This document shows positions 29,774-32,000 of a stretch of DNA of 32,000 nucleotides, one piece after another (within the stretch, counting starts at the first letter, position 1; every line of letters starts with the position of its first letter). The stretch lies in assembly GCF_021057185.1 (NCBI RefSeq), contig NZ_CP054059.1:900001-932000 (forward strand), written 5' to 3'. The notes below the pieces were generated by a model. The model did no database searches, was not told where the DNA came from, and was given only the letters and a program-made list of their open reading frames with translations. The position numbers were made by a program, and so were the translations under genes. This DNA is from Candidatus Absconditicoccus praedator (GTDB lineage: Bacteria > Patescibacteriota > Gracilibacteria > Absconditabacterales > Absconditicoccaceae).

Positions 29774-30382
29774 ATGGCAGAAATCCCAAATAGACTACAA
29801 ACCAAAAAAGAGGATGCAGAAACTCTGATAAACCTTCTGCAAGATCAAAAAGATAAACTGGGAGAGGATCATTTAATGTTTAGGAACCAGCCGGATATTA
29901 TCAGCCAATTCCAGTCTATGAAAGACGAAATTTTGGAATGAGCTGAGGAGTTGGATGTCAGAGACGAACAAATTGATGATGACAGAGAGGGGCTTTGGAA
30001 TAATTTGACTGATTTTGTTGCTAGACTCAAACAATACTATCAATTTACCAAAGAAGACGGAGATCTGCCAGATTGGATGTACTACAAACCACAAACAAAT
30101 CAAACCGGACTAGAATTTTTGGAAGAACTTTTTGATAAAATTGATGAAGAATTATCCGAAGATTTCAAAACTTGATTTGATCAAGCTTCACCAATTACTA
30201 TTTCACAAGCAAAAGATGATTTTGAAGAATGGAAACAATGACTTAGATGAGAAGATTGGGAAGTATATATGGAAAAAAGAAGAAATATGTCTAGATTGAT
30301 CAATTATATGAAAAAGTCGTTGATGATGACAGGAATGACCGGCTTTGAAGTAAGAGTTAATCTGCACGAGGACGAAGACTAA
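29774..30382 (+). CDS. hypothetical acidic protein
   Basis: 202 aa. ATG 29774, TAA 30380-30382, five in-frame TGA. Visibly more G+C than the adjacent KAP gene. No family recognised. Confidence 0.6.
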
Positions 30383-30404
30383 AAATTTCATCTATCAACT
30401 CAAA

Positions 30405-30437
30405 AACCAGCTTCTATAAACAGGAGCTGGTTTTTTT
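30405..30437 (+). terminator. rho-independent terminator
   Basis: aaccagct (30405-30412) / agctggtt (30425-30432), then a T-run. The arms are nearly identical to those of the terminator at 21948-21977. Confidence 0.75.
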
Positions 30438-30474
30438 GATTCCCCAAAAAATTAATAAGTAATTGATAATGTCT

Positions 30475-30583
30475 ACCCCTCCAAAAGATTGTAACAAAGT
30501 TGAAGAGGGATACCCCTCCAAAAGATTGTAACAAAGTTGAAGAGGGTCACCCCTCCAAAAGATTGTAACAAAGTTGAAGAGGG
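30475..30583. repeat. tandem 37-bp-period hairpin repeat array, left part (3 identical units)
   Basis: acccctccaaaagattgtaacaaagttgaagaggg at 30475, 30512 and 30549. The 35-bp cores are identical and separated by 2 nt (at, tc). Each core carries the complementary ends ccctc / gaggg. Confidence 0.9.
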
Positions 30584-30586
30584 TAG

Positions 30587-31872
30587 CCCTAGTCTTGTCC
30601 GAAACATTGATTTTATTATAAAAAAAGCTATAAGTATAGCATTTAAAATAATAAAATATATTTAAATATGGAAGGAATTAATGTAAAACAGATATTAGAA
30701 ATAATACCTGATGAATTTATAGAAAAATTAGAAAAAAACTGTAATATAAATCATCAAGTTAAAAAAATGAGTTGAAAGGTAATGTTTAAACTGTTATTAA
30801 TGTGAATATTAGATTGAGATAATTTAACACAAAGAACATTAGCATCAATATATAACAGTCCTGAATTTACTCAATATGCAGATAAATGAGAACAACAAAC
30901 AAGACATACAACTATAAGTGATAGACTTATAAACATGGATTATAAATTCTTTGAGAAATTGTTTGAAGAAATAAGTAAAAAGTTTGAAAAAGTATTAAAA
31001 ATATGAGCAACAAAAATGAAGGTGGTGCTAAAGAGATTTGATTCTACATTAGTTTGAATATCAGAAAAACTACTTAAGTTTTGAATAAAAGCATGAAGTC
31101 CAGATGAAAGACATATAAAATTTACAGTCTGATTAAAGTGATTGTTGCCAAATAAAGTTTCAGTTTATGAAGAGCAAAAAGCAAGTAGTGAAGATGTAGC
31201 ATTATGAGAAACTATTTTACAAGAGACAACATCTAAAAATCAAATATTATTATTTGATAGATGAGTTCAAAAAAGAGAAACTTATTCAAAGCTAATAGAT
31301 AAAAATACAAATTTTGTAAGTAGATTAAGACAAAATACTAAGTATCAAGTTATAAGACAAAATAAAGAAGTAGAATGAATAAAAGTATGAAATTTAGTGT
31401 TAGAATGTGATGAAATAGTAAAATTATATTGAAAATGATGAGATATATTAGAAAAAGAATTAAGATTAATAAAAGCAATAAATCAAAAAAATGAAGTATT
31501 TTTATTTATAACAAATATGTATAATTTCACAGCAGAAGAAATAACAGAATTTTATGCAAGGAGATGGGATATAGAAGTATTTTTTAGATTTATAAAACAA
31601 GAATTTTGATTTAGTCATTTTGTATCAAGATCAAAGAATTGAATAATGAATATGCTATATATGACACTAATAACATCAATACTTGTAATAGTATATAAAT
31701 CAAAAAACAGTATAAAATCCTACAAAGAAGCTAAAAGAAGATTTATTGCTGAATTAGATGAATTAATTTTAATTGAGCTAGCAATAGCAATCTGAGGAGA
31801 TGTTGATCTTCTTAAAAAGAAATATTTAAATTATTATAAATACTCTTAATAAGGTTTCGGACAAGACTGGGG
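30587..31872 (+). mobile_element. IS4/IS5-superfamily insertion sequence (about 1.29 kb)
   Basis: Inverted ends ccctagtcttgtccgaaac (30587-30605) and gtttcggacaagactgggg (31854-31872) agree at 18/19 positions. One DDE_Tnp_1-type ORF. Sits between repeat units 3 and 4. Exact ends and target duplication are ambiguous because the target is itself palindromic. Confidence 0.8.
30668..31849 (+). CDS. IS4-family DDE transposase
   Basis: 393 aa under code 25. KRFDST, ILLFDRG and the Y-x2-R-x3-E-x6-K signature (YARRWDIEVFFRFIK). Many TGA Gly codons. Confidence 0.85.
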
Positions 31873-31874
31873 TC

Positions 31875-31982
31875 ACCCCTCCAAAAGATTGTAACAAACT
31901 TGAAGAGTACCCCCACTCCTAAATATTGTAACAAAAGGGATGGAGTACCCCACTCCAAAAGTTAGTAACAAAAAGGATGGAG
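31875..31982. repeat. continuation of the hairpin repeat array, right part (1 close + 2 diverged units)
   Basis: 31875-31907 is acccctccaaaagattgtaacaaacttgaagag. Two diverged units follow (31908-31945 and 31946-31982), keeping the ..ttgtaacaaaa.. / ..tagtaacaaaa.. core. The array may continue past the window end. Confidence 0.8.
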
Positions 31983-32000
31983 TATTCCATTATTATGGTT

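Follow-up and report, generated by a model that had tools for sequence, protein, structure and literature searches.

The stretch analysed here (the window) comprises 32,000 nt, positions 900001-932000 of the single 1,129,696-bp contig of Candidatus Absconditicoccus praedator (genome G000), and window positions are offset accordingly. Near its right end, an array of abutting 37-nt repeats is interrupted by an insertion sequence (IS) of the IS4 family. We interpret the repeats as a family of hairpin elements, modular, non-coding and specific to the lineage, which resembles repetitive extragenic palindromes (REPs) and BOX elements and serves as a landing pad for the IS, and assign this interpretation a probability of about 0.7. 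An earlier note on this DNA had proposed a lineage-specific, REP-like array acting as an IS landing pad, which agrees with the dispersed loci, the narrow range of the family and the location of the IS ends in the hairpin tops. The repeats are REP-like in their behaviour and are not REPs in the strict sense. The other reading offered by that note, a structured ncRNA or a protein-binding scaffold, is a less likely possibility.

Anatomy and dispersal of the hairpin repeats

The array in the window is composed of a left and a right half on either side of the IS (Table 1). Tandem Repeats Finder reports a 37-nt period in the left half (30474-30590; 3.2 copies, 95% matches) and in the right half (31879-31984; 2.9 copies, 81% matches). 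A 34-nt core recurs exactly at 30476, 30513 and 30550 and does not occur in 100 shuffles, so that program and exact matching agree with the earlier note on three identical cores at a 37-bp period to the left of the IS. To the right, where that note had counted one close and two diverged units, direct reading yields four (A', B, B and C). Following the contig beyond 32000, as had been advised, extends unit C to 32021, and the GTGCCCGGGCGC palindrome comes next, at genome position 932027. The gap between units is just 2-3 nt, which fits their description as abutting. Upstream of the first unit, TTGATAAT ends at a distance of 5 nt, and the leader hairpin (30402-30435) is also detected as an inverted repeat. 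The GC content of the window is 28%, and long reading frames are open only with TGA as a sense codon (code 25, glycine). The absence of a long open frame over the units was confirmed under this code: no open reading frame (ORF) of more than 59 aa spans the arrays. A protein-coding repeat was rejected on this basis and because the 37-nt period does not divide into whole codons.

The motif is not restricted to this site. The search for the core recommended in the earlier note gives 16 matches to a 24-nt core in G000 (up to 3 mismatches), compared with 0 for a reversed-pattern control, and nhmmer maps 11 regions, ~1.4 kb in total, all of which are intergenic. The family comprises ~35 units at ~9 loci, and the units in each array run head to tail. 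The unit order is constant: A units (one to three) come first, then a transitional A', followed by B (one or two units) and a single C. The A', B, C order is repeated at 173.4k, 315.3k, 476.4k, 1024.4k and 1085.8k and in array C104 of a related metagenome-assembled genome (MAG), G221. Three copies have a ~60-nt tail in which the start of the unit recurs in inverted form, TTTGTAACAATCTTTGAGAGG. Other copies are single units or truncated, and the number and types of units differ among copies. Sister 37-nt arrays at 107.0-107.2k, 128.7k and 803.3k have homologous arms (CCCT...GAGGG) with a CGCGCG palindrome as the joint, and 'X-type' sister units have an AACAT...ATGTT centre.

The search for relatives covered ~125 genomes from the family and ~400 from the class. 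In a set of 40 relatives, a match was obtained in G011 (83% completeness) alone, a B-C-tail segment of 91% identity. G221 (record CAYMVT01, deposited as 'Ca. Peribacteria') is the sole convincing match among the 400 genomes of the class; G000, G221 and G011 are one genome from each of three genera. At least four arrays are present in G221, some with units that are far more diverged. G221:C104 shares the ~100-nt leader with the window and continues with A, A', B and C without an IS; one A unit follows the common leader there, compared with three in the window. Upstream of this array is a gene for a restriction-modification methylase, which is missing from the window locus, and the module therefore occupies different contexts in the two genomes. 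The leader is 95% identical to that of G221:C104 and 85% identical to that of G221:C97, in which a compensatory C-G to T-A change is found in the leader hairpin. In six arrays (the window, G000 803.3k, three in G221 and one in G011), TTGATAAT or TTGATAAG precedes the first unit by 5-10 nt. G019 and G011 have no array at the site of the 173.4k copy. The elements (L058, L060, L012) are 90-99% identical between G000 and G221 or G011, compared with 64-75% for neighbouring coding DNA and 69% for the proteins of REP-associated tyrosine transposases (RAYTs). Two exact-pattern scans of a metagenome collection found no relative, and two of a viral collection found nothing real; the viral matches are chance ones inside coding sequence, and a phage origin was rejected.

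Each unit can best be read as a single imperfect hairpin, ~36 nt long, that has ACAA/TTGT at its base and GC-rich sequence at its top (e.g. GAGGG-TCA-CCCTC). The AT-rich joint, TTGT-A-ACAA, is itself palindromic and leaves one nucleotide between neighbouring hairpins. Because the hairpin units abut, AT-rich and GC-rich palindromes alternate, and a string of hairpins is possible on either strand. Both predictions of the earlier note in this respect hold: ccctc and gaggg can pair inside a unit and over each junction, and both strands fold beyond dinucleotide shuffles (z -1.9 to -6.0; 8 arrays). The minus strand folds somewhat better in arrays with many A units (e.g. -93 versus -72 kcal/mol), since G-U pairs on this strand replace A-C mismatches. 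In arrays with changing arms (G221:C97, G221:C108 and G000 476k), the 3' arm of one unit is complementary to the 5' arm of the unit that follows, for example in the junction AGGTATG-tct-CATACCT, where the 5' arm of the preceding unit itself is ACCACTCCTC. Arm-to-arm duplex energies were used in this comparison because shifts of the hairpin register preclude column-wise covariation scoring. Junction pairing equals or exceeds within-unit pairing in 22 of 24 comparisons (summed energies, -178 versus -152 kcal/mol). Several different stems keep the pairing (GAGGG/CCCTC, GGAGT/ACTCC, ATGGA/TCCAT, AGGTATG/CATACCT and AAGGG/CCCTT), and sister families have a different palindrome, CGCGCG or AACAT..ATGTT, in place of the TTGT-A-ACAA joint. 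The arrays are most simply described, and these data best read, as imperfect ~36-nt hairpins that follow one another head to tail.

The IS4-family element and its target

The transposase of the IS is encoded by a single ORF (30668-31849; 393 aa, with 20 TGA codons read as sense). It matches NCBIfam NF033592 (166 bits, cut-off 115) and Pfam DDE_Tnp_1 (PF01609; 74 bits, cut-off 23), both above the cut-off, and the insert was therefore correctly placed in the IS4 family by the earlier note. The inverted repeats, (T/C)AGTCTTGTCCGAAAC, are 16 nt long with 15 of 16 positions matching (30590-30605 and 31854-31869), and the termini are (T/C)AG...CTG when the element is taken as 30590-31869. Transposase models, single ORF and terminal inverted repeats are all those of an IS4-family member. 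Four full copies (99.9-100% identity) and two fragments are present in G000, and the only homologue found in the relatives is a 27%-identical one in G221.

The ends of these copies are closely associated with one short palindrome. The 9-mer GGGNNNCCC was observed at all 10 IS ends, nine of which are exact while the tenth lacks one C. This 9-mer occurs at 29 sites in G000, compared with 8.4 expected from the base composition; 13 of these sites are in or beside the hairpin-repeat family, and 9 abut IS ends. Whether further IS copies sit in the same motif, which the earlier note had wished to see checked, can be read from the host repeats: six of the ten ends lie in the family and four in the sister X-type hairpin, GGGGG-TGA-CCCCC.

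The flanks of the individual copies are mixed. The trinucleotides are TCA (twice), TAG (once) and TGA (twice) on the left and TCA (twice), TAG, TGA and GGA (once each) on the right. In the window, the right flank, GGGTCACCC (TCA), is unlike the left flank, GGGTAGCCC (TAG), and equals the left flanks of the IS copies at 653.9k and 605.3k. GGGTAGCCC was found only to the left of the window IS and to the right of the copy at 1024.4k, and the TAG form is absent from uninterrupted junctions. Mismatched flanks that match other copies point to recombination between IS copies after insertion. We infer from the flanking sequences that GGGNNNCCC represents a 9-bp target duplication, followed by recombination among identical IS copies. 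The earlier note had regarded the target duplication as undefinable because the IS ends resemble the junction. The resemblance stands and would arise because the target GGGNNNCCC is the hairpin top, which is duplicated, while a 9-bp duplication becomes inferable when the copies are compared.

Two paralogous genes (window 29774-30382 and G000 1024635-1025246), which encode proteins of 202 and 203 aa with 59% identity and are located 94 kb apart, border these array halves. The 202-aa gene precedes the left half in the window, the 203-aa paralogue follows the right half at 1024.4k, and both halves share the GGGTAGCCC flank. Neither protein has a match in Pfam. This arrangement suggests that the ancestral order was gene, array, gene and that recombination between IS copies broke it up.

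The proposed target resembles that of IS231A, an IS4-family element of Bacillus thuringiensis that inserts into GGGNNNNNCCC, GGG(N)5CCC, with an 11-bp duplication (PMC2577343, Table 1). Target duplications in the IS4 family are ~10 bp, about one helical turn (PMC2266710). For IS231A and for the present IS, the target is a GGG...CCC palindrome inside another repeated element, and it would be duplicated here as well. The spacer of the IS231A target is 5 nt and its duplication 11 bp, whereas the spacer here is 3 nt and the duplication, deduced from cross-copy flanks, would be 9 bp. By analogy, an IS231A-type preference for a palindromic 9-bp sequence would explain the targeting without recognition of a structure. 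Derivation of the composite from the IS as a miniature inverted-repeat element (MITE) was rejected, as the composite ends are unlike the IS inverted repeats.

A second IS, of the IS256 family, is located inside a unit at G000 228372-229738 (minus strand). It encodes a 394-aa transposase (NF033543, 335 bits) and is bounded by the 8-bp duplication AACAAAGT. Elements that target REPs include IS1397, ISKpn1, IS621, ISPpu9/10 and ISRm22 (Tobes & Pareja 2006, PMC1525189). All 10 copies of ISRm22 (IS4 family) and five of seven copies of ISRm5 (IS256 family) are located in REPs (PMC1525189). REP targeting is thus documented for the two families that interrupt the arrays here.

Taken together, a full copy consists of a ~100-nt leader, one to three near-identical A units, the fixed A'/B/C series and a tail. 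The number of A units may change when identical units slip or exchange unequally, and the whole composite has come to occupy unrelated intergenic sites in three genera. The IS4-family element would insert into the 9-bp palindrome GGG-N3-CCC and duplicate it, and recombination between identical IS copies would later have shuffled the flanks. Since GGG-N3-CCC is rare in a genome of 28% GC and the copies used are all in repeats, the arrays would offer safe landing pads.

Known systems and alternative explanations

Compared with known repeats, the family combines features of two classes. REPs and their clusters, the bacterial interspersed mosaic elements (BIMEs) of enterobacteria and pseudomonads, are likewise extragenic, clustered imperfect palindromes (35-40 nt) and preferred sites of certain ISs. 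The ~36-nt hairpins fall within the 20-40 nt of REPs, and 11 of 11 regions are intergenic. However, the BIME units alternate in orientation with linkers, whereas the units here run head to tail with 0-1 nt between hairpins. REPs number hundreds (usually >100) per genome, compared with tens here. The GTAG or CGTC tag of REPs is missing from the units, and the resident RAYT gene is flanked by a different palindrome rather than by the repeat. The fixed leader, the graded unit series and the tail also set the present elements apart. The BOX elements of Streptococcus pneumoniae, boxA-(boxB)n-boxC (Croucher et al. 2011, PMC3049150), also have end modules around variable internal units, intergenic dispersal, extensive secondary structure and a narrow lineage; the likeness is architectural only. 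BOX units are 45-59 nt with a single boxB type, in contrast to the 37-nt units, the fixed graded series and the TGA-recoded host here. A parasitic or neutral status, with incidental effects on genes in the same transcript, has been assigned to BOX elements (PMC3049150) and may hold for the present family.

Spacerless arrays with a 37-nt period were also observed at dozens of loci per genome in Parablautia intestinalis (NZ_RAYQ01), P. muri, Lachnospiraceae strain 1XD21-87 and mouse-gut MAGs (loci L066-L185, e.g. L078, L093, L117 and L128). Their unit consists of ACAAAC, a GC-rich hairpin, TTATTGT and A, which gives the same TTGT-A-ACAA joint and the same architecture as in the Absconditicoccus arrays, a likeness that is partly a product of the search pattern (a 10-mer and a period of 36-39). 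A comparison of 52 different units shows covariation at one stem pair (C-G 21, T-A 18, T-G 8) and persistent mismatches at two positions. These arrays match no entry in Rfam.

Several observations weigh against the interpretation as landing-pad hairpin repeats. No mobilising enzyme was found; the RAYT-like gene is flanked by another palindrome, and the composite shares no terminal repeat with the IS. No IS copy has an exact 9-bp repeat on both sides; the flanks match only across copies. The hairpin centre shifts between unit types, and one structure mask misfits alignment A1 for column-wise covariation. The ~35 units at 9 loci are far below classical REP copy numbers. Furthermore, the layout is gene-like and looks like an independent transcription unit: the conserved TTGATAAT immediately precedes the first unit, and the leader contains a terminator-like hairpin. 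The cross-genus identity of 90-99% is unusual for junk DNA and reflects either recent horizontal spread or strong constraint; the latter, if real, would favour a functional RNA or a binding site. A protein that binds TTGTAACAA would also count against the interpretation.

These features bear most directly on a different explanation, in which the composite, present in several copies, would encode a structured small RNA, transcribed on the plus strand from the -10-like TTGATAAT with the leader terminator as insulation, and the IS insertions would be incidental. Such an RNA might, for example, be a sponge for a protein or RNA. The conserved position of TTGATAAT/TTGATAAG in six arrays, the compensatory change that preserves the leader hairpin and the contrast between element and coding-DNA identity all agree with this, and most copies are oriented like the preceding gene. 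However, a promoter scan of the leader gave no sigma-70-type promoter, and Rfam 15 had nothing at threshold (best window match 27.9 bits, gathering score 120; zero matches for the 1024k copy), so that a known RNA family was rejected. The unit number and types are variable, with single and truncated copies; two IS families have split copies without sign of counter-selection; and the minus strand folds as well as the plus strand or better. We consider a small-RNA gene improbable, though deserving of attention.

A further improbable reading is that the composite, with its terminator, TTGATAAT, hairpin array and tail, is a self-contained, horizontally moving non-coding module. It would be either a hairpin-array RNA that is expressed and has a role in the cell or in predation, or a member of an undescribed class of head-to-tail 37-nt TTGT-A-ACAA arrays that is common to the mouse-gut Lachnospiraceae.

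The arrays could also act as stacks of minus-strand intrinsic terminators or insulators that stop convergent or antisense transcription. A consensus terminator scan made 6 minus-strand calls inside arrays, compared with 0.5 expected, and the 1024k copy gives the same picture. The stems reach 9 pairs (e.g. TTGGAGGGGTGACCCTCTTCAA then CTTTGTTACA), the minus-strand hairpins precede CTTTGTT, and the better folding of this strand in arrays with many A units points in the same direction. However, a convergent gene would read into the array on the minus strand in only two of the seven full copies (173.4k and 315.3k), the T-tracts have little length and are broken up, and the A-A'-B-C order, leader and tail are left unexplained. 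This function is unlikely to account for the arrays.

G000 does contain a classical-type REPtron (392150-393060), in which a RAYT-like gene (392278-392799, 173 aa) is flanked by GCGCCCGGGCGC, a palindrome with 12 copies in the genome, one of them at 932027. The protein scores 28.6 bits with Pfam Y1_Tnp (cut-off 23) and 67.9 bits with NCBIfam REP_Tyr_transpos, short of the 80 bits required. Another RAYT-like gene, 38% identical, is located at 402902-403306. Were the units true REPs spread by this enzyme, one would point to the GCGCCCGGGCGC palindromes that adjoin two arrays (932.0k and 1085.7k) and to the units between the palindromes upstream of the RAYT gene, one degenerate 37-nt unit in G000 and three in G221. 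The unit joint GTAA also appears close to the GTAG tag of classical REPs. However, the palindrome on both sides of the RAYT gene is of the CCCGGG type and recurs in G019 and G420, the latter without a unit there; GCGCCCGGGCGC or CCCGGG palindromes flank the orthologous genes of G019, G221 and G420. G019 yielded no array, although its RAYT is 87% identical, and G011 has an array and no RAYT was found there at its 83% completeness. In addition, the Y1 transposase genes of Lachnospiraceae with analogous arrays are not flanked by the motif. The RAYT link was rejected on the different palindrome and this inconsistent co-occurrence, and a classical REPtron origin is very unlikely. The presence of GCGCCCGGGCGC beside arrays and of units near the RAYT gene is read as co-location in permissive DNA.

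Derivation from CRISPR, as a spacerless decoy for Cas proteins or a decayed locus, merits almost no weight: the 37-nt length is typical of CRISPR repeats and identical units at one end with degenerate ones at the other recall CRISPR arrays, but spacers are absent from all ~9 loci with just 2-3 nt between units, the repeats of the three real G000 arrays (146.9k, 189.7k and 808.3k) are unrelated, no cas genes were among the neighbour genes looked up and the unit is on no phage or viral contig, and the relation was rejected.

Positions, neighbours and significance

Table 1. Positions of the array, the IS and the dispersed copies. The first nine rows give window positions; the others give positions in G000 (k, thousands).
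Feature	Position	Strand	Remark
Leader of composite	30375-30475	+	terminator-like hairpin with A- and T-tracts, 30402-30435; conserved TTGATAAT, 30463-30470
Three identical A-type 37-nt units	30476-30586	+	CCCCTCCAAAAGATTGTAACAAAGTTGAAGAGGG plus 3-nt linker (ATA, TCA, TAG)
Left copy of putative 9-bp target, GGGTAGCCC	30581-30589		top of junction hairpin
IS4-family insertion sequence, 1280 bp	30590-31869	+	inverted repeats, transposase ORF
Right copy of putative 9-bp target, GGGTCACCC	31870-31878		adjoins right IS end
Diverged unit A'	31876-31909	+	direct reading
Diverged unit B, first	31910-31947	+	direct reading
Diverged unit B, second	31948-31984	+	direct reading
Diverged unit C	31985-32021	+	direct reading; cut by window end, 21 nt outside
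Composite copy	173.4k
Composite copy	228.2-229.8k	-
Composite copy	315.3k
Composite copy	476.4k
Composite copy	930.4-932.0k		array of this window
Composite copy	1024.4k
Composite copy	1085.8k
Single units	605.3k, 653.9k, 392.9k

The genes beside the arrays are mutually unrelated and include those for a WecG-type transferase, a D-Tyr-tRNA deacylase, several unknowns and, by eye, a long PBP-like protein; a conserved neighbouring gene was rejected on this ground. A repeated terminator-like hairpin, AAAATGTGGATAGCT...AGCTTCCACATTTTT, was observed beside several arrays (G000 ~229.9k, 229.65k and 605.2k). Its arm TGTGGATAG appears to be one mismatch from a DnaA box.

Small interspersed repeats have hardly been described in bacteria that belong to the candidate phyla radiation (CPR), and the hairpin-repeat arrays provide a clear example, a feature of an ordinary kind yet without an earlier report in this bacterial group. 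Alongside them, an IS has been identified whose target, a 9-bp palindrome, is sharply defined. The number of units is a marker for strain typing, and the repeats explain contig breaks in related MAGs. If the cross-genus identity is due to function and not to recent spread, the arrays would deserve study at the transcript level. The IS copies parked in the repeats have probably rearranged the 1.1-Mb genome.

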